This document shows, piece after piece, positions 1 to 10,228 of a DNA stretch of 64,000 nt. A program made the translations under genes and the position numbers. Location: IMG/VR virus record IMGVR_UViG_3300037501_000255. One strand, written 5' to 3'. The number at the start of each line of letters is the position of its first letter. Within the stretch, counting starts at the first letter, position 1. The notes beneath the pieces are model-generated. The model saw nothing but the letters and a program-made list of their open reading frames with translations, was not told where the DNA came from and did not search any database. This DNA comes from a virus. Taxonomy: Duplodnaviria > Caudoviricetes.

Positions 1-447
1 TGGCCCAGGGCTAGAGTCTGCAATGGTATCGAACAGTGCGAAGTGACGCTGATCGTCGCCAGCCTCACCAGAGATTCGACCGAAGGCGCGCATGGTGCCA
101 CCATCGACCGCACGATTCTCGACATTCCGATATCGACCCTCACGCTTGATCGGCGCACAGCGAGACTGGCGAATCTCGGATTCCATCCACTTCTGAATGG
201 AAGCGCGAATCCACTGCATCGCGAACGTGGGGAATGGACCTTTGGTGGGATCGAAGCGCTCAATCCCCCTGCACAGACCGAATACGCCCTCCTGAAAGGC
301 ATCCTCGTGCAGCTCCCTCGGGATACGCAAGAAGCGACGGATGACGAAGTGAATCAGGTTGTGATGATGAGCAATCAGCGCATTGCGCGTGGCATTGCAC
401 GGGTTGCCGAGATACTGAGTGAGGGCGTTGTCACGTTCAGTCGTCAT
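1..447 (-). CDS. Sigma-70 family RNA polymerase sigma factor (3' end runs off window)
   Basis: Not in ORF track. Hand translation from ATG at 447 (AAGGAG RBS): MTTERDNALTQYLG...RNALIAHHHNLIHFVIRRF...EDAFQEGVFGLCRGIERFDPTKGPFPTFAMQWIRASIQKW, matching sigma region 2 (DLxQEGxxGLxxAxExFDPxKG..F.TYAxxWIR). Confidence 0.88.
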   Translation of the reverse strand, partial: MTTERDNALTQYLGNPCNATRNALIAHHHNLIHFVIRRFLRIPRELHEDAFQEGVFGLCRGIERFDPTKGPFPTFAMQWIRASIQKWMESEIRQSRCAPIKREGRYRNVENRAVDGGTMRAFGRISGEAGDDQRHFALFDTIADSSPGP

Positions 448-617
448 TGCTGCTCTCCTTGGTGAGACGGATCATGGCCTTCGCCAATTGCCGCATCGCG
501 GTTTGCTGAAGTTCGCAACTCATGCGAACGCAATCCTCATCAGTCGCTTCGTCATTCAAGCGATAGATTTCCTCTTCCTTCACACTCTTCCATCAAAATC
601 TCTTCGAAAGATTTCAT
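437..617 (-). CDS. Small acidic hypothetical protein, apparently frameshifted
   Basis: GGAGG RBS + ATG at 617 (MKSFEEILM); acidic frame VKEEEIYRLNDEATDED...SSNDD* ends at 437 overlapping the sigma start; needs a 1-nt shift. Confidence 0.4.
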
Positions 618-631
618 GCTTACCTCCGTTG

Positions 632-661
632 TGGTGGGGCTTTTTCGGCTGACCCCAAGCC
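632..661 (-). ncRNA. H-type pseudoknot motif A, copy 1
   Basis: GGCUUGGGGUCAGCCGAAAAAGCCCCACCA: S1 GGCU/AGCC, S2 UGGGG/CCCCA, A-rich loop; 28/30 identical to copy at 2307-2336. Confidence 0.6.
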
Positions 662-670
662 TCGGCGATA

Positions 671-1096
671 CTAGCGAATCAGCCCGGTGGTGACAGGCGT
701 GACCGTCAGGGCGCTGCTGACCTTGCCGTTGCGCGTCTTGTTCGGCAGCTCTGCCAGCACCTTCTGGCGGAACTCTGCCTCGAATTCCTCAAGGCCGGAC
801 TGAGCAATCAGTGCAGACCTCATGTTGCGATCTGCCAGCACCACCTCATTGACCGCTTCGCGCATCACCTTGAGGAAGTGCGCGCGCTGCACACCCATCT
901 TCTTGAGAGCAAGGGCGACCGTGGGAATCAGCGGGATATCCACGGTGGGAGTGTAGGTCTCGTCAGCCGACACCGTGAGGGCTCCGCGCACCTCGATGGT
1001 GAACGGCTGCACCGTATGAGTGCCGGAAGTGATCTGGGTGCGGTCGGCCTTGACGGAGAGCTTCTCAAGGGCGAGCTTCTGGATTTCGGTGAGCAT
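671..1096 (-). CDS. Hypothetical protein
   Basis: 141 aa ORF with AGGAGG RBS, co-oriented in operon. Confidence 0.75.
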   Translation of the reverse strand: MLTEIQKLALEKLSVKADRTQITSGTHTVQPFTIEVRGALTVSADETYTPTVDIPLIPTVALALKKMGVQRAHFLKVMREAVNEVVLADRNMRSALIAQSGLEEFEAEFRQKVLAELPNKTRNGKVSSALTVTPVTTGLIR

Positions 1097-1120
1097 CGAT
1101 GCCTCCTGCAGTTGTCTGAG

Positions 1121-1183
1121 CGGACTGGCTCATCAGGCAGGGTAGTCCATGTCCCTGCGACGAGGCCGAAGCCTCGTTTCGCC
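1121..1183 (-). ncRNA. Hammerhead ribozyme, type II, with loop I/3'-tail pseudoknot
   Basis: GGC-GAAA-C-GAGGC-UUCG-GCCUC-GUC|GCAGGG-ACAUGGACUA-CCCUGC-CUGAUGA-GCC-AGUCCG: complete core (CUGAUGA, GAAA, GUC site), stems I-III all pair, loop GGACU pairs with tail AGUCC; cleavage between 1159 and 1158. Confidence 0.93.
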
Positions 1184-2242
1184 TCAGGCGAGTTCAAGCT
1201 CGCGCGAGCGCTTGGGTGCCTTGTACACGGCATCAGGTGCATCGGCGAGGAGGAAGTCCAGCGCCTTCTGATTCATCTTCTCCGCGACACCCCCACCGAA
1301 GAGGGCATCAAACTTGTTCGTGTCCGCACCCGACTGCTCGGTATTGCGGTAGTTGCGCTCGTGGGTGTTGTACTCGGTCACCGCATTGAGCAGAGCCCAG
1401 CGCGTACCAGTCACACCAGGGATGTGCGTTCCCTTGCCCATCATAGACAGGTGGAGAATCTCCTTCTGAATGTTCTCGGCACGAGTGACCGCCTTCGGAC
1501 CCTTGCCCTCCGTGGGGGCCATGGTCTCCAGGAAATCTCGGGTGTAGGCGGCATCCGCACGCAGACCGGCAAGCCACGTAGAGATCCGACGGAACTGCTC
1601 GGCTTCCTCCGAGGCCAGACCGAGAATCTCGCGCGCCTGCTGAATCTTGCGAGTCGGGTCACCAACGTGCTTGATGGTCACCCCATCCTCACCCGTGCGC
1701 AGGGCGAGGTTGAGTGTGTTCTGACACACGATGCGGACCGACGTGAACTTGCACTTCAACGAGTTATTGCCGTCGTGGCCGGTCGTGAGCATCAGGAACA
1801 TCTTGGTCTTATCACCAAGAATCGGCTCCAGCTCGTATCCATCACCAAGCAGCTGCGCCAGCAGCCAGATGCGCTTACCGCCATCGATCGAGCCGGCCGT
1901 CACGTAGCGCAGCTGACTAAGCTCGCCCACCGCCGAATCGAGGAAGTTGAATGCCTCGGAGTTCTGGATGGGAGTGTAGCGCTCGGTGCAGGTCCCGAGA
2001 ATCTTGTTGTCGCGATCTCGCACGATATGCAGGAGCTCCTCGCTCTTGAATACTCGACCGCCGATCTCGACAGCGGCCGGGTGGAGACCGACTCGCCAAT
2101 CGAGACCCGAGAGACGCACGGTCTCGGCAGCGCTCAGAGGGCTGGCACCACCATATCCGTAGAACTTCTCCGGATTCATGTGCCAGGGCATGTCCTTGGT
2201 GAAGTCACCAACCCACATCATCGATTCAACATTCGCGGCCAT
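1184..2242 (-). CDS. DUF932 / phage-plasmid LGT TIGR03299-type protein
   Basis: Motifs GSIDGGKRIW, LTTGHDG, TSVRIVCQNTL, GTRWALLNAVTEY. Confidence 0.9.
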   Translation of the reverse strand: MAANVESMMWVGDFTKDMPWHMNPEKFYGYGGASPLSAAETVRLSGLDWRVGLHPAAVEIGGRVFKSEELLHIVRDRDNKILGTCTERYTPIQNSEAFNFLDSAVGELSQLRYVTAGSIDGGKRIWLLAQLLGDGYELEPILGDKTKMFLMLTTGHDGNNSLKCKFTSVRIVCQNTLNLALRTGEDGVTIKHVGDPTRKIQQAREILGLASEEAEQFRRISTWLAGLRADAAYTRDFLETMAPTEGKGPKAVTRAENIQKEILHLSMMGKGTHIPGVTGTRWALLNAVTEYNTHERNYRNTEQSGADTNKFDALFGGGVAEKMNQKALDFLLADAPDAVYKAPKRSRELELA

Positions 2243-2306
2243 TGCGGACTCCTGACGGTAGCATCGCGGCTACTCGGTGTTGCCGGAGCCTATCCCGGCA
2301 TGGGGC

Positions 2307-2336
2307 TGGTGGGGCTTTTTTGGCTAACCCCAAGCC
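2307..2336 (-). ncRNA. H-type pseudoknot motif A, copy 2
   Basis: GGCUUGGGGUUAGCCAAAAAAGCCCCACCA, 7 nt after a UAG stop. Confidence 0.6.
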
Positions 2337-2343
2337 ACCATTT

Positions 2344-2844
2344 CTACTCTAGACCCATGACCTTGCGAGACATTCTGCGCAGGCGCTCGCCGATGAATTC
2401 AATATCTGCCTCAGAGAACGCCTCAGAGCACATGATGACCCAGAGGTTGTGCGTGCGGTCCGGCTCGAAGTATCGCTCCAATTCTCGATACCTCTGCGTT
2501 TTTGGATGGACCTTGGTGCCGACAATCAGCACATTCAGGTAGTTGCCGTGACCATATACTCGATCGCAGCGCTCCACGAGATGCGGGTCCAGCATGCGAG
2601 TGCGCTTCTGCTCGCTGTATGCTGCGCCGCAATTGATTTCCACATTGAGGAAGAAGCTGCGCCCATTCCGACGTGGGAGTGCGAACTGCAGGTCCATCCT
2701 ACGAGGGTGCCTTAGCTCACCGGGGTAGGTAACCTCCTCTCGGGTTTGGATTGCTGCAAGCACGGCACTCTCGCGCACTTGCGAAGGACGATGAATGAAG
2801 GGGCGCAGGCTTGTCGCAACAGATCGTTCGAGTCGTGTCAGCAT
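2344..2844 (-). CDS. Hypothetical protein (possible PD-(D/E)XK-like fold)
   Basis: 166 aa ORF; MDLQF...NVEIN spacing weakly resembles D..E-x-K. Confidence 0.6.
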   Translation of the reverse strand: MLTRLERSVATSLRPFIHRPSQVRESAVLAAIQTREEVTYPGELRHPRRMDLQFALPRRNGRSFFLNVEINCGAAYSEQKRTRMLDPHLVERCDRVYGHGNYLNVLIVGTKVHPKTQRYRELERYFEPDRTHNLWVIMCSEAFSEADIEFIGERLRRMSRKVMGLE

Positions 2845-3089
2845 GGCTCACCTCAGATGAGACCTTCGGTTGCGGACATCGGGGCGGGCGCCTTGACCTT
2901 ATCCTTCGGAGCTTTCTTCGTGAACACAGGATTATCGCGGTCAAAGAACCCAGCATCAACGCTAAGCTCAATCTCTGACCTTGAGAGCAATAATGAGGCT
3001 TTCGAGTTCGGGAACATTCTTCTTCTTGAGTACAATGCGACCCAGCATGGTTCGTCTCCATCGTATGCGTTACGGTATCAAACGAAGTA

Positions 3090-3173
3090 TGCAGGTGGCG
3101 GGACTCGAACCCGCACGGGTTTTCCCCACAGGAATCTAAATCCTGCGCGTGCTGCCAATTTCGCCACACCTGC
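3090..3173 (-). tRNA. trnL: tRNA-Leu (anticodon TAG), no encoded CCA
   Basis: GCAGGTG/CACCTGC acceptor stem, TGGCGAAATTGGCA D-arm, CAGGA-TTTAGAT-TCCTG anticodon arm, long variable arm, GGTTCGAGTCC T-arm. Confidence 0.95.
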
Positions 3174-3200
3174 ATGGAGGAGCTTACGCTCCTCTGGGAC

Positions 3201-3401
3201 TCAGTCGCCCCGGTACCTGCCGAACTCTGGTTCATCCTCATCATCCGCATCGACATCATCCATGTCTGCGGATACCAACTGGCCCGTTGCGGGGTCCACA
3301 GACAGGCCGGTATGAATGATGATTTCTGCCCCGTCCTCATCCACCATCCCATTCGGGAAATAGCGGCGAGCGAGGTCCTTCAGGTCTTTCACGGTTCTCA
3401 C
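3201..3401 (-). CDS. Small acidic hypothetical protein
   Basis: 66 aa ORF in tightly packed operon. Confidence 0.65.
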   Translation of the reverse strand: MRTVKDLKDLARRYFPNGMVDEDGAEIIIHTGLSVDPATGQLVSADMDDVDADDEDEPEFGRYRGD

Positions 3402-3408
3402 AGATTCC

Positions 3409-3636
3409 TCACTTCGGATTGTTCAGGCGATTCTTGATTGCTTCGATGGCTTCCACTCCCCACCGTGGGTTGCGGGCCACCGCATCTCGTGCATGATTCA
3501 GAGCTTCATTCATTGCCTCCAAGATGACATCTTCTGCTTCGCGAAATGCTTGCCTGTCACCATCGAGATGCAAGCGCTTGAGTAGCATGTGAGCGAACTG
3601 CTGAGGATCTTCGATGTCGCGGTCAGGTCGCTGCAT
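3409..3636 (-). CDS. Hypothetical protein
   Basis: MQRPDRD... start after GAGGAAG RBS, coupled to the ligase end. Confidence 0.65.
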   Translation of the reverse strand: MQRPDRDIEDPQQFAHMLLKRLHLDGDRQAFREAEDVILEAMNEALNHARDAVARNPRWGVEAIEAIKNRLNNPK

Positions 3637-4795
3637 TCTCTTCCTCCTTGTAGCGGTCACCCAGGACAGCGCGAACCTTGCTCTTAAAGAGCTTACAGAA
3701 TCCCGTGTCATTCATTTGCATGAATGCATTGTGGACCGTGTTGCTCTTGCCTGCACGAGTCGTGAACAGAGCTGCGGTGTAATCGAGCTTTCGGGCCTGA
3801 ATGGCGAGGGCGAATTCCTTCTGAGATTCAATCCATCGACACTCCTCGAACACCGCTTCATGCTGAGCGATGACGGACTGGATGATGTTCGACACTGCAT
3901 CCAAGTCATCCTTGTACTGCGGGAAATGCGTGGTAATTTCCTCGTAGTCATTCGACTTGGCGAGGAGAATCAGGTTGTTGATGCCCCGCAGACCGTCTTT
4001 GGCTCGGTGCAGCTGGACATACTGGTCGCTCTTGATCTTCACACGGTTGTAGTCGCCGTCACACGCCACGAAGCCCTCAAGCTCGGTGGCTGCATGCTTA
4101 TTGGCAAACTCTGCCACCTCCGCACCGCTGGCAAAGCGGTAACTCTTGGGAAGCGTGGCTCCATGACCGCAGACCTCAACCGCCTCTTCTTGCATGGTGC
4201 GGATGTTGCGGATGGCTAGCAGCTTGGCCGAAAATCCCTCATGGCGCACAACCACCATGTTGTGCTGGGAGCAGATCTCAAATGTCCAGGTTTCGTATGG
4301 CGGTTGCAGGTCCAGGGGAGAGGTTCCGTCCTCTCTCACGCCTACATTCCCCACACACCGATCAATCAACTCCTGCCAGGTGATGACCCCGGAGTTGACC
4401 GTATTGGTCCGCAGACCATCAGGCAGCTGGAACCGCGTCGAGTACTCGAACCGCTGGGTGTGAGGACTCCACCAGCGATTCACCATCGAGCCATCGATCT
4501 TCTCGTAGACCTTTGCAGTCCCCCAGTCGATTGGGGCAGCGTAGTGCTCGCCGAAGTTAAAGAACTTCGCCAGACCGAATGCGATGACATCGAAGGTTTT
4601 CGCATCCAGCACCAGCCCACGACACGCGTAACCGAAGGGCTCGGTCCACTTCACTGCCAACTGATCGTAGTCGAGAATGAGATGCAATCCATCGGACTTG
4701 CCACTGATGCCATGCTCAGCGTCGAACTGTTCGAGCGTTTTCCCTGAGCGCAGGTAGTCCTGCGTAGCTCGCAGGGCATCTTGGATGGTGAACAT
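3623..4795 (-). CDS. T4 Rnl1-like ATP-dependent RNA ligase
   Basis: Motif I YEKIDGS, ACRGLV, KFFN, TFEI, EGFV, RVKIKSDQY; start MFTIQ at 4795. Confidence 0.9.
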   Translation of the reverse strand: MFTIQDALRATQDYLRSGKTLEQFDAEHGISGKSDGLHLILDYDQLAVKWTEPFGYACRGLVLDAKTFDVIAFGLAKFFNFGEHYAAPIDWGTAKVYEKIDGSMVNRWWSPHTQRFEYSTRFQLPDGLRTNTVNSGVITWQELIDRCVGNVGVREDGTSPLDLQPPYETWTFEICSQHNMVVVRHEGFSAKLLAIRNIRTMQEEAVEVCGHGATLPKSYRFASGAEVAEFANKHAATELEGFVACDGDYNRVKIKSDQYVQLHRAKDGLRGINNLILLAKSNDYEEITTHFPQYKDDLDAVSNIIQSVIAQHEAVFEECRWIESQKEFALAIQARKLDYTAALFTTRAGKSNTVHNAFMQMNDTGFCKLFKSKVRAVLGDRYKEEENAAT

Positions 4796-4797
4796 TT

Positions 4798-4992
4798 CTA
4801 CCTCGGTTCCCAGTCGTTGCAGACTTGCACTTTCCTGCAACGCATGTTGTTATGAGTGCCATGACACTGCATCTCAGTAGAATGTGAGATGCAGCGCATG
4901 TTTGTATGCCACCAGTATGTGCCGCCGAAGATTGCCACTGTGATGGTAATCAGCAGTAGAACCACGCCGGCATTACTCAGTCGTTGCCTCAT
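4798..4992 (-). CDS. Small membrane protein with Cys-rich extracellular part
   Basis: MRQRLSNAGVVLLLITITVAIFGGTYWW TM helix followed by four Cys. Confidence 0.6.
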   Translation of the reverse strand: MRQRLSNAGVVLLLITITVAIFGGTYWWHTNMRCISHSTEMQCHGTHNNMRCRKVQVCNDWEPR

Positions 4993-5186
4993 CCGCCAGT
5001 CGAGCCGCCGGGCGTTCCGGACTTTCGATAACCTCGACGAGGGCGAGGTCGACGCCACCGATGCACTGGTAGCTCGTACCGCCATCGATAAACGTGCGGT
5101 TGGGGCGACAAGTCGTGGCGGTGTCGCGATTCCAGAACATCCAGACACTCCTTGCAGAGGATAATGTTGCGTGGTCTCTCACTCAT
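4973..5186 (-). pseudogene. Small phage Zn-binding protein (CxxC..ESxHRHD..CxC..IDGG family), frameshifted
   Basis: Frame 1 LCKECLDVLESRHRHD joins frame 2 CRPNRTFIDGGTSYQ; the usual FVxCxC segment is missing. Confidence 0.65.
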
Positions 5187-5319
5187 AACGAGGCCTCCGT
5201 GTGGTTTCTTCGGGAAACTCATCCTGTGTAGTACTTGACGAGCTTATCACCGTCAGGAACAGCCAGCGCCTCTTGTGCGATCTCGCTGAGGCTGGTCCGG
5301 CCAGGGTCGGGAATCTCAA

Positions 5320-5551
5320 TCATGCCAACGCCTCCCTCTTTTCTTTGGGAATCATATGTTCGCCCAGAGTCACATCTAGGAGAATGGCACGGGCCAGCGG
5401 GAAGGATGGATTCTTCTCGCAAGCATCAATGGCGCCCGTGCGTTTCAGGTAGGTCACCACCACTGTGGCGCCCATCCAGCGCGAGAGTGTCTGATGTCGA
5501 GTCTGCGCGTCTTTGGCTTCCATTTCAAAGCCCCATTCGGTTGATGAGCAT
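5320..5551 (-). CDS. Hypothetical protein (probable 1-nt homopolymer frameshift near 5525)
   Basis: AGGA RBS + ATG 5551 (MLINRMGL) joins ORF 5320-5523 if CTTTG is read as CTTG. Confidence 0.5.
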
Positions 5552-5557
5552 GTTATA

Positions 5558-5648
5558 TCCTGTTCGTAGGACTTCGGTCACCATCATTGCAGGCGACTGC
5601 GGCTACGCGATGTGGCTGCCGGCCCCATTGCCCAGGGGCCGTTTGGGT
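5558..5648 (-). ncRNA. Structured RNA motif B, copy 1 (pseudoknot + 3 hairpins, riboswitch-like)
   Basis: 91 nt, same length and loops as copy at 7712-7802, compensatory changes in two stems. Confidence 0.7.
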
Positions 5649-5894
5649 TCACTGTGGTGTACCGCACTCCCTCACGATGAGCGCATCACACTCCCTGCCC
5701 GGCTTCTTCTGGAAGCACTGCGTGCGATCCAGGAAGTCGCGAACGCACTGATCGCGCCTCATCCCCTCCACGCGAGTCTGCACCTCCGAGATGCCGCTGT
5801 ATGCGGCCTGTCCGACCTTGCGCGGATTTTGGAAGGCGAGCACGCCGAAAACTCCGATGACGATTCCGATGACGAGAGCAATGAACTTGTCCAT
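5649..5894 (-). CDS. Small membrane protein
   Basis: N-terminal TM helix, four Cys. Confidence 0.7.
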   Translation of the reverse strand: MDKFIALVIGIVIGVFGVLAFQNPRKVGQAAYSGISEVQTRVEGMRRDQCVRDFLDRTQCFQKKPGRECDALIVRECGTPQ

Positions 5895-5983
5895 ATTTCC
5901 TTCTCAGTCTGCCATGATGTCTGCGAAGAGTATCACCACGCCCCAGATGAACGTGGTGGTGGCAAAGAATGCTGCGATGTAAA

Positions 5984-6181
5984 TCATACCGAGTATTGCA
6001 TGCGATCCATGCGGTCGCGTGCCTCCAAGTATTCCAGCGTCACCACCTGAGTGAGCTGGTCGTTGCAGAGGTGGTCGAAATCATCGCCGAGACCCAGGAT
6101 GGAATTGCGGTCCTCGACCGGCGAATCATTCAGCGGGGTACCGTCAGGTTCGTGCATGTCGATGTTGATGAGCTTGTGCAT
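5984..6181 (-). CDS. Hypothetical protein
   Basis: 65 aa acidic ORF with GGAG RBS. Confidence 0.6.
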   Translation of the reverse strand: MHKLINIDMHEPDGTPLNDSPVEDRNSILGLGDDFDHLCNDQLTQVVTLEYLEARDRMDRMQYSV

Positions 6182-6386
6182 GATTCACTCCAGGTTGGTG
6201 GTTTTGGCGCCGTCCACAACGGACAAAGAACAGGGCACCATCTCACGCGCAACTTCTTCTGCGTAGTGTGTTGCTTACGGGGAGGTATGTTTCCGCCAGG
6301 ACTCCACACCATCCATAATGTCTTGCCCTGCTGCACACGCGGATGGGACACTTGCGCTCCTGCAAATCAGAGATCGTCCGTACGCA

Positions 6387-6821
6387 TCACTGCACCTCAC
6401 GAATGAACTTGCTGAGCTGCTCCTGCTCCAGCACACAGCCATTAGGGCTGCGGCTTGCGGAGAGCTGCGCGGCGGTCATCATCACCACACCGAAGTAGAT
6501 GTCACTGTCTACATCTAGGTCGTGGCTGCGCTGGGCCGCAACCTCAGCATGCGCCTTCTCGGCGAACCCATGCCAGTAAGTGTTGCCGTTGGGGTATTGT
6601 GTGCGGATCAGGAAGCATCCGCGCTCATCGGTTTGTGCGATCCTTTGGCTCATTTTCATTGTCCCTCGAAAGCGTTGACGGTCGGCGTAGTGCATCATGC
6701 TGCCGTCATGGCCCAGCACGAACACTACATCTAGAATCTGGTCTGCAGCGATGACCTCTCTCCCATGTTCACTTTTCTTGCGTGGATTTGGAAACGGCAC
6801 GCCGCAGTCGGCCGTGCTCAT
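6387..6821 (-). CDS. Hypothetical protein
   Basis: 144 aa ORF in operon. Confidence 0.6.
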   Translation of the reverse strand: MSTADCGVPFPNPRKKSEHGREVIAADQILDVVFVLGHDGSMMHYADRQRFRGTMKMSQRIAQTDERGCFLIRTQYPNGNTYWHGFAEKAHAEVAAQRSHDLDVDSDIYFGVVMMTAAQLSASRSPNGCVLEQEQLSKFIREVQ

Positions 6822-6961
6822 CCGAAGCTTCCAGCAACTTCCGACAGCAAATGTCCACCCAGGTTTTGTGCGAGAATGCTCGGCACTTCATGAAGGTCTT
6901 GCTTGCCTCCTCGAAATCCCTAAGTGCTTTGTTGAGCCGCTCTTCTGAGCGGGCGAGCGCA

Positions 6962-7264
6962 TCACTCATCATCATCCTCCTCGGGGAACAACTTGTCATC
7001 CTCCTCGGGGAACAACTTGTCCCATTCGGCAGGGGTCGTGCCGGTCATGATAAACTCACGCTCAGGTGGGGCGAGGAACGGAAATGCATCTTGTATGAGT
7101 GCACCGTTTACGTAGGACGAGATGGCCGTACACATCTTGCCGAAAGGATGGTCGAACACCATCTCCTTAGAGACGATCCCTGGGCCCATCAGGCTTCGAC
7201 CTTCGCGAACCACGATAGTGCGATCGGCGCCGTCGTGAAGCAGACGAAAAGTAGCAGGAAACAT
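6962..7264 (-). CDS. Conserved phage protein (LIQDAFPxL..EREFIxTG..WD motif)
   Basis: Start MFPATF after GGAGG; C-terminal KLFPEEDD twice. Confidence 0.75.
   Translation of the reverse strand: MFPATFRLLHDGADRTIVVREGRSLMGPGIVSKEMVFDHPFGKMCTAISSYVNGALIQDAFPFLAPPEREFIMTGTTPAEWDKLFPEEDDKLFPEEDDDE
6973..7021. repeat. 24-bp perfect tandem duplication
   Basis: catcctcctcggggaacaacttgt x2, encodes DKLFPEED x2. Confidence 0.9.
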
Positions 7265-7265
7265 C

Positions 7266-7706
7266 TCAGACCTCCTCGGGAAGTTGCACGGCCGAAGCCA
7301 TGCGCTTGATGCCTTCGAGCGGAACACCGTGCGTGTTGCGACGAGCGTACGTCTCGCACGCCTCGGGTGTGAACTCGCCCACCACCTCGAACACCACGTC
7401 GTACCCCATGGCACGAGCAAGCTTGATGTAGGGCTCGCGGTGCTCGGCACGGATGTTCGTGTTGTCCACGATCACCTGATCGACGCTGTCGGCGAGGGCG
7501 AGCGCGAACTTCTGGAAGTTCAGTGCGTGATTTTGCGTGAGCTTGCCCGGATTGAACCGGTAGACTCCGCCCTCCATGAAAAAGTCGTCCGTGGAACACA
7601 CCACGGTCCTAAGACCGAAATCCTCGCCCGCCTTGACCATCTTGGACACAGCAGTCGACTTGCCGGCGCCAGGAAGGCCGATCATAAGCACAGCAACCTT
7701 CGACAT
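7266..7706 (-). CDS. AAA_33 / polynucleotide-kinase-like P-loop kinase
   Basis: GLPGAGKST, STDDFF, VIVDNTN, RNTHGVP (N4BP2/PNK-type). Confidence 0.88.
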   Translation of the reverse strand: MSKVAVLMIGLPGAGKSTAVSKMVKAGEDFGLRTVVCSTDDFFMEGGVYRFNPGKLTQNHALNFQKFALALADSVDQVIVDNTNIRAEHREPYIKLARAMGYDVVFEVVGEFTPEACETYARRNTHGVPLEGIKRMASAVQLPEEV

Positions 7707-7711
7707 AGGAA

Positions 7712-7802
7712 CCCCGTTCGTGGGACTACGTTCCCCATCATTGCAGGGGAATACGGCTACATGATGTAGCTGCCGGCCCCATTACCCAGGGGCCGTTTGG
7801 GT
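7712..7802 (-). ncRNA. Structured RNA motif B, copy 2
   Basis: ACCCA-AAC-GGCCCC-UGGGU-AAU-GGGGCC pseudoknot, GCUAC/GUAGC, UUCCCC/GGGGAA, UCCC/GGGG hairpins. Confidence 0.7.
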
Positions 7803-8210
7803 TCACTTCTTGAGGATGGCGTCGAGCGGACGAGCGGCGGACCGGGCCTGCACCTCCTCGGCGCGCTGACGACGGACGAGGCTGATGGTCTGAGTCTTGA
7901 CCCAGCCGACGCACGGGGTGTTGAGGGGGAGGCGGATCGTGCGGGACTCCCCCTTGTCCATGGCATCCGGAACGGTGGTCACATCCGCGAAATTCATGTG
8001 CGGAATGACCCGCACGCACGCGATGGCACGGTGCCCGCCGCTGGGGAGCTGGACCACCGGACGGTCCGCCTCCGGGTCGTTGGCGGCGAACAAGACCGAG
8101 CTCAGGGGGCGGGTGAGGGGCTTGCCGCTGGTCTTATTCGCCGCCTCCTTCTGCTGCGTCTTGCTGATCTCGATGTGGCCGATGACGCGAGCGGTGTTGT
8201 TCTGGGACAT
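7803..8210 (-). CDS. Hypothetical protein
   Basis: Start MSQNN after AGGAG RBS. Confidence 0.7.
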   Translation of the reverse strand: MSQNNTARVIGHIEISKTQQKEAANKTSGKPLTRPLSSVLFAANDPEADRPVVQLPSGGHRAIACVRVIPHMNFADVTTVPDAMDKGESRTIRLPLNTPCVGWVKTQTISLVRRQRAEEVQARSAARPLDAILKK

Positions 8211-8250
8211 GTCTCTCTCCTGTATGCGCAAAGACCCTGCGCAAGGTGTT

Positions 8251-8324
8251 CCCGGACTTGGAACCGGGCTCCGGAGACTCTTTCCGGAGGGCCTTACTAA
8301 GAGTTCCCCCCTAGTCCTCGGTCA
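8251..8324 (-). ncRNA. Twister-like ribozyme candidate, copy 1
   Basis: GAG-GA/P1(GGAA loop)/UAA, P3, P4 CCCGG-UUCCAAGU-CCGGG; L4 UC pairs with GA after GAG. Confidence 0.6.
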
Positions 8325-8507
8325 ACGATCCCACGCCTTCCGACCACGCCGCTGGAACTTCCAATTACGCTGTTTTTCGCGGGTTTCGTCATCATATGCA
8401 TCCGCGAGGTTACGGGGGGTGCGCTTGCCACGCACGAACTCCCGAACCTCGGGCGCAGCGTTCTGAACCTTCTCGTTCTGGGACTTAGGACGACGCATCC
8501 AACCCAT
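8322..8507 (-). CDS. Small basic (Arg-rich) protein between the two twister-like RNAs
   Basis: 61 aa, RRPK..VRGKRTPRNLADAYDD, GGGAGA RBS. Confidence 0.7.
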   Translation of the reverse strand: MGWMRRPKSQNEKVQNAAPEVREFVRGKRTPRNLADAYDDETREKQRNWKFQRRGRKAWDR

Positions 8508-8557
8508 TGTCTTCTCCCAAATAAAAGGCCGTAAAATCTTGTTTTTGTTTATTTTTC

Positions 8558-8632
8558 CCGGGACTTGGGACCCGGCCCCTAAGAGTCTCCCAGGGGGGCC
8601 TTACTAGGGGTTTACCCCCTAGCCCTCGGTCA
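8558..8632 (-). ncRNA. Twister-like ribozyme candidate, copy 2
   Basis: GAG-GG/P1/UAA, P3, P4 CCGGG-UCCCAAGU-CCCGG; L4 CC pairs with GG after GAG (covaries with copy 1). Confidence 0.6.
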
Positions 8633-8818
8633 GCGGCGGGCCGGCAGGCCCACACCCAGACGCTCACGACGCCAGAAGAACCGGCGACGGATCGTCTCCT
8701 CGAACACGTCGGGCCGCTGGCCCTCGGGGACCGAGTAGGTCACACCCTCCACCGAGATCATGCCCTCGGACAGCGGCTTACAATCCTCGGTCCGACGGCG
8801 GATGAAGGTTGCGGTCAT
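8630..8818 (-). CDS. Hypothetical protein (first ORF of left arm)
   Basis: 62 aa ORF with AGGT RBS; stop overlaps twister-like copy 2. Confidence 0.6.
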   Translation of the reverse strand: MTATFIRRRTEDCKPLSEGMISVEGVTYSVPEGQRPDVFEETIRRRFFWRRERLGVGLPARR

Positions 8819-8829
8819 GTTGCACCTAT

Positions 8830-9555
8830 CTGCGTTCCCCCAGGGTTATCCCAGGGTCCTACGGCTTTAGACGTAGCTTAGGCCCATTAGTGCAATGCAC
8901 CGGCGTATCTCCTACTAGTCAGTCCCTCACCCTAAGGCATCCCCTAGGGTCAGTAGACACACCCCTACCGTGGACCGCTTCGGGCAGTCAAGCTAGTGTC
9001 ACACCCTTTCGGGCTAGCTTCCTTTTGTAGTGGCGTTTTCCTTTAGGTGCCAAAGGATGCGCGGTCACTTGTCTAGGCAGACAGACCGGCTCACACGCTA
9101 TGGCATCGGAGACTTGCCGGTGTCCCGATTAGCTTACTGTTTCGCTTTAGCCTTTACGTTTGGGAATAGATGGGGCTAGCTGGCAATTGGGTTAGGGAAG
9201 GAACCTAACCGCGTTGCTGCTTGCCCGGTTCGGCTAGGTAGCGTGGCCCGTATTGCCTCGCTTCCCTAACCCATCCTAACCCCTTTCGGTTAGGCGCTAG
9301 CTAGGGATCTCTCCCGTAAGCTAGTCGGGGCACCTTATTACGCCAGCCCTTTCGGACCGACTACGCACACGCCGCTTGCGCGGGATGCGTGGGGGATTCC
9401 GGGCTATCTAGACCCGCTCCTACCCTACTATACTTCCCTTTATGACCCGACCAGGTTAGTGAAACCGGATCTGATCCTATCGGGCTTGGGCCGTCCCGCT
9501 ACCGCGTTCCGCCCGTAGCGGTGTCACCCGCTAGCACCTTGTCATCGGCGCACCC
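8830..9555 (-). ncRNA. Large highly structured non-coding RNA (GOLLD/ROOL size class, unassigned)
   Basis: No long ORF; more than 12 hairpins including GNRA loops (GUCC-GAAA-GGGC, CCUAACC-GAAA-GG..GUUAGG, CCGC-GCAA-GCGG, GGGA-GAGA-UCCC, CCC-GAAA-GGG) and long-range GGGUUAGGGAAG/CUUCCCUAACCC. Confidence 0.65.
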
Positions 9556-9606
9556 TTTATTATGATTCAATCGGGTTAGTGAAAAGAGATCTAGATCTAG
9601 ATCTAG
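9436..9606 (-). promoter_or_regulatory. Duplicated promoter-like motif TTTCACTAACC-N8-TCATAA plus (GATCTA)3 palindromic array
   Basis: Two copies about 120 bp apart, each preceded by GATC-A/TAGATC; AGATCTAGATCTAGATCT at 9587-9604. Confidence 0.45.
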
Positions 9607-10228
9607 CGTACCTTATCGCACACATTCCTACATGTAGGAGGGGGTAGGGGGGTGTAGGTCCCACCGAGAATGCCTCCAAACTACCCAGTTACACTTTTTT
9701 CCACTCACAAACTCTATAGTATATCACTATCTTTTCTATAGTCTAGCGCTATCTAGGTACTGTGGGAGTCATCCGTAATTAAATCACACATATTTCCAAT
9801 AGCTTTCCCCTACCTTATACGGTTGCTCTCTTATATTAGCTACGTGGGCGGGTGGCTCTATGTGAAAAATACGGTTGGTCTAGGGATATGGGGGGGGGGG
9901 TGATGGTAGCTGTTGCGGGAGACCTGAGCCTATGCGTGAACGGTGGTATTGGGGCGGTTTTTGTCGTGATTTTAATAGGGCGGGAGATTCTGCTTTTCAG
10001 CTATATGATGATGTTATAATGGTGGGTTTGAATTCTTCCGGGGATTTGGTACGTGCCGGAGATTGTTATCCTATGGTGGGTATTTTTGTGTGTCATGGTA
10101 GTACTTTTTGTCAGGAATATTATCATGTTCAGCAGTGTGCAGCTGGATTCTATACGTAACACTTGGATGAGAGTGGGAGTATTATTTGGATTGAAGGCTA
10201 GGCTGGCCTAGATTTTGGTGGGAGGGGT

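Follow-up and report, generated by a model that had tools for sequence, protein, structure and literature searches.

Natural small self-cleaving RNAs fall into few structural classes, which a 2023 survey put at 12 (PMC10761166). Twister-sister, pistol and hatchet were all discovered as conserved structures near twister or hammerhead ribozymes (PMC6765202), and the element described here has a setting of this kind. It is an RNA motif of ~95 nt that occurs twice in a 64,000-nt stretch of viral DNA, referred to below as the window (IMG/VR virus record IMGVR_UViG_3300037501_000255; Duplodnaviria, Caudoviricetes). Copy A (5558..5648) and copy B (7712..7802) lie in an operon that also carries type-P5 twisters and a type II hammerhead. 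An earlier inspection of the letters alone, the sequence-only reading, had described the repeat as a riboswitch-like translational switch that hides the Shine-Dalgarno (SD) sequence of the next gene or, alternatively, as a new ribozyme. Judged from the 19 copies compared below, the motif is a new, previously undescribed family of structured RNA, and we tentatively favour its interpretation as an RNA-processing "punctuation" module, probably a new class of self-cleaving ribozyme.

The closest described systems with respect to genomic setting are the type-P5 twister (RF02684) and the type II hammerhead (RF02276) that accompany the motif. The motif shares with them the operons, the strand, a layout in which the element adjoins the preceding stop codon and ends shortly before the next start, and the presence of several elements per operon. 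The folds and the conserved nucleotides are, however, unrelated, and the motif embeds an SD sequence in its last stem, whereas the ribozymes in these operons leave 13–22 nt before the next start codon. A twister is recognized by a covariance-model (CM) match with a double-pseudoknot core and the conserved elements GGUCCCAAGCC and UAAUGC; scans with the twister models (RF02684 and RF03160, clan CL00120) recovered the twisters of the window and nothing on the motif, with the same outcome in six other loci. A hammerhead is a three-way junction with a core of CUGANGA and GAAA. No CM match to hammerheads (RF02276, RF00008) was found on the motif, whose conserved bases are located in hairpin loops closed by covarying stems and not in a junction.

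Identification of the motif family

Nineteen distinct copies of the motif were collected from about a dozen phage-like metagenome contig lineages, 17 of them beyond the two copies in the window. Pairwise identity among the 19 copies ranges from 42 to 91%, and their CM scores from 63 to 112 bits. Copies A and B are 87% identical over 95 nt, and copy A scores 125.5 bits with model R1 and 106 bits with model R2. A 19-mer common to both copies occurs twice in the window, against zero expected from 100 shuffles, and because the 17 further copies keep the fold with compensatory changes, the repeat is far beyond chance.

A CM built from copies A and B confirmed one IMG/VR match, L006, which was the only real motif among 20 first-pass matches of the IMG/VR pattern scans; a relaxed pattern later added L063. 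Eight more copies were obtained by a pattern scan of JGI metagenome contigs, and the remaining ones from contigs retrieved through homologues of the 81-aa protein encoded upstream of copy A and of the kinase encoded downstream of copy B. One metagenome candidate, L031, was discarded as a chance match. The L054 contig starts within the motif, at position 54 of the model, which we take to be an assembly end and not a cleavage site. No match was found in cultured phages (megablast of window positions 5000–9000 and blastn of copy B), and a scan of 185,579 prokaryotic species, each represented by a single genome, returned six pattern matches, none of which was confirmed by the model.

Copy A belongs to the subtype designated 'a', while copy B is chimeric, with a 5' half (pseudoknot, P1 and P2) of subtype 'a' and a 3' half (P3, the P3–P4 joiner and P4) of subtype 'b'. 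The L060 copy is likewise a chimera of the two subtypes, from which it follows that motif copies exchange parts.

Rfam 15 was consulted by a gathering scan of the window and by E-value scans of the motif, of the whole 10-kb operon and of 16 related loci. No family matched the motif itself at E ≤ 10, or at E ≤ 1 in six loci. The sequence-only reading had stated that its proposal would fall if the motif matched an Rfam family or a known terminator; such a match was looked for and none was found. Literature searches yielded no description of the motif, and a search with the loop sequence returned only papers on miR-130.

Predicted fold and conserved nucleotides

From 5' to 3', the motif comprises a pseudoknot strand, an AA linker, P1, P2, a single A, P3, a 4-nt joiner and P4, corresponding to an H-type pseudoknot and four consecutive hairpins. 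In both window copies, the first four bases of the P1 loop can pair with the four bases just past the stop codon. The 5' strand CCCA of copy A (5644..5647, minus strand, as for all coordinates in this section) pairs with UGGG at 5631–5634, and that of copy B (7798..7801) with UGGG at 7785–7788, where A7802 and U7784 offer a possible fifth pair. The AA linker (5642–5643 and 7796–7797) leads into P1 (5620..5641 and 7774..7795), which in copy A has a 7-bp stem, CGGCCCC/GGGGCCG, and an 8-nt loop. P2 (5599..5619 and 7753..7773) has in copy A the conserved base GCAG...CCGY and a variable apical loop; its A•C mismatch is formed by A5617 and C5601 in copy A, and by A7771 and C7755 in copy B. An invariant adenine (A5598 and A7752) precedes P3 (5577..5597 and 7731..7751), the loop of which, UGCAAUGAU, is located at 5583–5591 in copy A, where it has 9 nt on a 6-bp stem, and at 7737–7745 in copy B. 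The final hairpin, P4 (5557..5572 and 7711..7726), carries the loop ACGAAC (5562–5567 and 7716–7721), and its 3' strand is the SD-like AGGA in copy A (5558–5561) and GGGG in copy B (7712–7715), the latter 5 nt before the kinase ATG. The shared pseudoknot, both loops and the covarying stems quoted in the sequence-only reading are all present, and the combination of pseudoknot and covarying hairpins that it deduced from two copies is upheld by the family of 19.

In an alignment of 18 sequences, standard pairs occupy 96.1% of the cells assigned to helices, compared with 39–57% when the partners are slid by 1–3 columns. Double-sided changes are found at 17 of the 25 pairs, and the observed covariation score was reached by none of 500 shuffles. 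Compensatory changes are seen in all four stems, the P3 stem alone occurring in eight different sequences across the copies; two CC/GG pairs in P4 never vary. The pseudoknot appears in seven complementary versions (CCCA/UGGG, CCG/CGG, UGCG/CGCA, GCG/CGU, CCCG/CGGG, CCACC/GGUGG and GCGCC/GGCGC), and, like classical H-type pseudoknots, it has a third loop rich in A. The predicted fold, i.e., the pseudoknot and P1–P4, is well supported by this covariation. Since G•U pairs outnumber A•C mismatches by 31 to 1, it is the sense strand of the mRNA that is functional.

Near-invariant nucleotides are concentrated in unpaired positions. They comprise the AA linker; the A•C mismatch, set between GC...G and C...CG in the basal part of P2; the lone A that joins P2 to P3; loop UGYAAUGAU of P3, from which four copies deviate at one position or two; the final A of the P3–P4 joiner; and loop ACGAAC of P4, which has an extra C in one copy. 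The apical loop of P2 is free in both length and sequence, and the stems also vary freely. Inspection by eye for pairing of the motif loops with the 3' end of 16S rRNA or with the tRNA T-loop revealed nothing convincing.

Position between genes and interchange with ribozymes

The pseudoknot strand begins 0–9 nt past a stop codon in 18 of the 19 copies, and in two of these it overlaps the stop codon by one base. As had been noted from the sequence alone, each window copy starts at the base right after a TGA, on the minus strand: copy A adjoins the stop codon at 5649..5651 of the open reading frame (ORF) 5649..5894, which encodes the 81-aa protein, and copy B that at 7803..7805 of ORF 7803..8231. 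Copy A takes up the gap between the stop codon of the 81-aa gene and the SD sequence. The last base of each window copy lies 5–6 nt 5' of an ATG. After copy B, this codon (7704–7706) opens the AAA_33/PNK-like kinase gene (7266..7706, minus strand), in agreement with the kinase assignment in the sequence-only reading. The spacing claimed there between AGGA or GGGG and the ATG is found in both copies, but the ATG that follows copy A (at 5551) opens only an 8-codon remnant ORF, MLINRMGL* (5525..5551, minus strand), and the next real gene encodes 67 aa and starts at 5523. In relatives the motif is followed by an L7/L12-like gene (MKINLPQQ... in L038 and MRIVLPQQ... in L055), and by comparison with these the remnant ORF is the stump of that gene, deleted in this phage.

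In 15 of the 19 copies, the 3' strand of P4 constitutes the SD sequence of the next gene (AGGA, GGGG or GGGAG), with the AUG 5–9 nt later. The placing of an SD sequence in the last stem is thus correct for these copies, but the overlap is absent in the four most divergent ones (L006, L025, L058 and L063), which keep P4 and its loop although the next start codon comes only 20 to ~140 nt later. A separate SD sequence is present at that start in L025, L058 and L063. The calculated energy of P4 is −3.0 to −5.4 kcal/mol where it carries the SD sequence, compared with −7.6 in L006 and L025. We read the weakness of P4 as a compromise that genome compaction would force on the element, not as the mark of a dedicated clamp. 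At least six unrelated genes are found downstream of the motif, and the motif can occur twice in one operon.

Two further features were observed immediately downstream of divergent copies. In L063, a two-codon mini-ORF, AUG UCC UAA, follows the motif (5284–5305, minus strand), and its AUGUCC can pair with a GGACAU that overlaps the real SD sequence (AGGAGG) of the next gene. In L006, the sequence directly 3' of the motif (10090–10142, minus strand) contains two copies of an 11-nt unit, UCCUCCGUCGG, within a stem AGAAC...GUUCU; this locus also contains three tRNA genes on the same strand, the nearest of which is ~780 nt downstream of the motif.

Two other functions were considered and rejected. 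Recoding would require a slippery site, of which there is none, and read-through of the copy B stop codon meets another stop after six codons. An intrinsic terminator is incompatible with the sequence following P1, which is GC-rich but continues into GCAG and P2, with no run of U in any copy.

The window contains three matches to known ribozymes, all on the minus strand and all detected by the Rfam E-value scan: two type-P5 twisters at 8252–8322 and 8559–8630 (30.6 and 36.4 bits; gathering score 37.6), and a type II hammerhead at 1119–1184 (33 bits; gathering score 37). With scores just under gathering, all three are missed by a default gathering scan. The first base of each is also the final base of the preceding stop codon. 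Type-P5 twisters or type II hammerheads are also present on the strand of the motif in L027, L037, L038 (four twisters), L048 (three), L051 (three), L055 and L058. Where gene calls exist, the start of each ribozyme is at most 2 nt from the preceding stop codon, and its end is 13–22 nt short of the next start codon.

The two slots occupied in the window can be compared across lineages. Seven lineages have the motif in the slot 5' of the orthologous kinase gene, and two have it there together with a small ORF. In L050, the same slot is occupied by a type-P5 twister (9895–9948) with typical UAAUGC and GGUCCCAAGUCC cores, and in L061 it is empty. The slot after the 81-aa gene contains the motif in six lineages, while in L051, L058 and L060 the motif is absent and the genes abut. 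Seen across these slots, the motif is an optional module. Family, fold, strand and layout, together with the co-occurrence and positional interchange with known ribozymes, are matters of observation. L050, which is a syntenic relative without the motif, also has a type-P1 twister at 3165–3233 (58.6 bits). A more distant kinase-bearing phage contig, L062, gave a weak group I intron match at 8969–9149 on the minus strand (37.7 bits; gathering score 50).

Comparison with other RNA classes

As for the motif, the hatchet ribozyme (RF02678) has four helices, a similar size, and a conserved GCAG. Hatchet cleaves at the very 5' edge of its motif (PMC6561176), which would suit an element abutting a stop codon, as our motif does. 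In hatchet, however, P2 encloses a P3–P4 arm, a 5' pseudoknot is lacking, and conserved bases are located in the P1–P2 linker and in loop L2, between P2 and P3 (PMC6561176), while the motif has four consecutive hairpins with conserved apical loops, and a 5' pseudoknot. Besides this difference from the published architecture (PMC6561176), no CM match to hatchet was obtained at E ≤ 10. The HDV-like ribozymes, including the theta ribozymes of gut phages (PMC10879173), resemble the motif in having the 5' end in a pseudoknot and in occurring in phages. HDV-like ribozymes cleave at the 5' edge with no need of upstream sequence, which would be a further likeness. Their fold is nevertheless a nested double pseudoknot (P1, P1.1, P2, P3 and P4) that encloses P3/L3 and P4 and has a catalytic C in J4/2, whereas manual mapping of the motif gives a minimal two-stem H-type pseudoknot in which nothing is nested, and no CM match to HDV-like ribozymes was found. 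Pistol ribozymes pair their P1 loop with a segment located 3' of P2, and their G-U cleavage site is situated between P2 and P3. The P1 loop of the motif pairs instead with a segment 5' of P1, and no CM match to pistol (RF02679) was found.

The RAGATH motifs, structured RNAs located near genes associated with twister or hammerhead, were found by the same logic as applies here, and several of them showed no cleavage in tests and have no assigned function (Weinberg et al. 2015, 2017, as summarized in PMC6765202); this record sets the prior for the present motif. The link between the present motif and ribozymes is closer than neighbourhood, as it involves the same slot and the same layout, and the absence of any match in Rfam 15 extends to the RAGATH families. 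Among riboswitches, preQ1-II, preQ1-III and SAM-II are comparable in featuring an H-type pseudoknot, a ribosome-binding site within a conserved helix, and a length of ~80–100 nt. Unlike these, the motif is present in several copies per operon in front of unrelated genes, its SD overlap is lost in distant members, it matches none of their models, and it was not found in bacterial genomes in the 185,579-species scan. A tRNA or tRNA-like structure does not apply either, since ARAGORN and the Rfam tRNA model identify only a tRNA-Leu at 3089–3174 in the window.

Gene content and further features of the operon

All genes between 1 and 9.6 kb of the window are on the minus strand, and both motif copies are accordingly read as the reverse complement (5648→5558 and 7802→7712). 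Besides the kinase and the tRNA-Leu, this GC-rich operon has genes for a DUF932 protein and an Rnl1-type RNA ligase; further downstream, the motif-bearing operon encodes a sigma-70-family protein. A search for RNA ligase families in genomes G001 and G002 gave no match, but likewise none in the control genomes, and is therefore uninformative. The tRNA-Leu (anticodon UAG, long variable arm; minus strand) is located between protein genes and is a further candidate processing point, for RNase P/Z, in the same transcript. The GC content is 55–59% in the minus-strand operon (1–9900) compared with 42–50% in the remainder of the window (10000–64000), with a sharp switch near 10 kb, and by its composition the ribozyme-rich operon looks foreign to the phage.

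Additional sequence features were noted in the operon. A 30-nt repeat, 93% identical between 632–661 and 2307–2336, is situated just after two minus-strand genes and is a candidate for a short GC hairpin or pseudoknot, distinct from the motif. A gap of ~205 nt at 6182–6386 (minus strand) separates genes for 144-aa and 65-aa proteins whose homologues overlap in L038; the gap has no Rfam match and may contain another structured element or a small gene. The gene that comes after the kinase has a tandem duplication of ~24 nt at its 3' end (about 6970–7022), through which the peptide DKLFPEED is repeated.

Discussion

Based on the observations above, we infer that the motif is cut, that it cuts itself, and where it would do so. 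In a clade of giant freshwater phages, the motif occupies entire gaps between the genes of a GC-rich operon, in which type-P5 twisters, a type II hammerhead and a tRNA are the other punctuating elements. Like its ribozyme neighbours, it would cut the polycistronic transcript into single-gene pieces. The active site of the putative ribozyme could be formed by the loops UGYAAUGAU and ACGAAC, the A•C mismatch and the single-base joiners, and the presence of near-invariant unpaired nucleotides beside freely varying stems and a free P2 loop counts in favour of a ribozyme. The folded RNA would stay on one of the cleavage products, where in most copies it would offer the next SD sequence on the weak P4, and the kinase and RNA ligase encoded by the operon itself might act on the resulting 5'-OH and cyclic-phosphate ends. 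The more specific proposal, to which the active site and the end processing just mentioned belong, is that of a new structural class of natural self-cleaving ribozyme made up of a 5' H-type pseudoknot and three hairpins, with which giant phages would cut operon transcripts at stop codons alongside twister and hammerhead; it is possible, and we hold it with somewhat greater reserve. Of the two options left by the sequence-only reading, a new ribozyme fits the context better than a switch, because twister and hammerhead occupy equivalent slots with the same layout.

Several points weigh against self-cleavage. Assays of other conserved structures discovered in the vicinity of twister and hammerhead ribozymes gave no cleavage (PMC6765202), and association alone is therefore weak evidence. 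The complete 198-kb phage that contains the L006 copy has a single copy of the motif, and no match to type-P5 twister, type-P1 twister, hammerhead II or hammerhead III at E ≤ 0.1, which indicates that the motif does not depend on those ribozymes and that the association is confined to one clade. The SD sequence in P4 of most copies would fit a translational role as well. A further caution is that the alignment had been fitted to the model. The copies, moreover, represent few lineages with two main subtypes and a few outliers, so that the number of independent compensatory events is modest, far smaller than the cell counts imply.

The main rival, a translational operator or riboswitch, is rather unlikely, but would account for part of the evidence. 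A ligand or an RNA-binding protein, the latter possibly a small basic phage protein, would lock the fold such that P4 masks the SD sequence and the next gene is repressed, while without the effector P4 would breathe and the gene would be translated. The spacing of the P4 strand from the AUG in 15 of the 19 copies and the invariance of the two CC/GG pairs agree with this mechanism, and the near-invariant loops and joiners could make a binding pocket. H-type pseudoknots that include the SD sequence are known in riboswitches, e.g., preQ1-II and SAM-II. A switch is, however, difficult to reconcile with the four copies that retain P4 and its loop far from any start codon, and with a P4 that is weakest precisely where it carries the SD sequence and strongest where it does not. 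The unrelated downstream genes, the possibility of two copies per operon, the absence of the motif from some orthologous slots, and the lack of both a riboswitch family match and a confirmed copy in the scan of 185,579 prokaryotic genomes point in the same direction. The structural part of the earlier proposal is upheld, but the label of a switch is not established, given the loss of overlap in four copies, the weak P4, the diversity of downstream genes and the multiple copies per operon. A related possibility, in which termination is coupled to reinitiation, is very improbable: a terminating ribosome would melt the pseudoknot and P1, loosen the tertiary fold and thereby free the SD sequence in P4, making translation of the downstream gene conditional on prior translation of the upstream gene. 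Such coupling would benefit from the SD sequence in P4 and from the position of the stop codon, which in most copies is 0–2 nt from the pseudoknot strand or 1 nt inside it. The known ribozymes of these operons, twister and hammerhead, adjoin stop codons just as closely, though, so this feature looks like genome compaction; moreover, no alternative 5'/3' pairing was seen, and the genes simply abut where the motif is absent.

Processing need not involve catalysis by the motif. A signal bound by RNase P, III or E or by a phage enzyme, or one that blocks exonucleases, would define and protect the ends of single-gene mRNAs, and this we consider unlikely, a little more so than a switch. It would be in keeping with an intercistronic layout equal to that of the ribozymes and the tRNA-Leu in the operon, with the compact H-type pseudoknot and its A-rich third loop at the extreme 5' edge, and with the motif standing alone in a phage with no match to the four ribozyme families searched. 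On the other hand, nuclease sites and exonuclease blocks would rarely be expected to need ~25 near-invariant unpaired nucleotides spread over four helices, and the motif is not tRNA-like. The least probable of the alternatives is another role in cis, either in processive antitermination of the put or EAR kind, or at the DNA level as a sigma-factor promoter or recombination site. The EAR RNA is itself an intercistronic pseudoknotted element, and the long operon around the motif has a gene for a sigma-70-family protein farther downstream. Against this, Rfam gave no match to put, EAR or related families, and the compensatory changes in four stems together with the excess of G•U pairs over A•C mismatches argue for a sense-strand RNA; on these grounds a double-stranded DNA site or promoter was rejected.

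Returning to the interpretation as a self-cleaving processing module, the occupation of the same stop-flush slot and the replacement by a twister in L050 provide a sharper clue than neighbourhood. The motif would be either a new class of ribozyme, in a field with few structural classes, or a new non-catalytic element that the phages treat as equivalent to a ribozyme, and either outcome would bear on the purpose of intercistronic ribozymes. With an RNA ligase and a PNK-like enzyme encoded in the same operon, these phages may offer a natural system for asking how ribozyme-made ends are processed.

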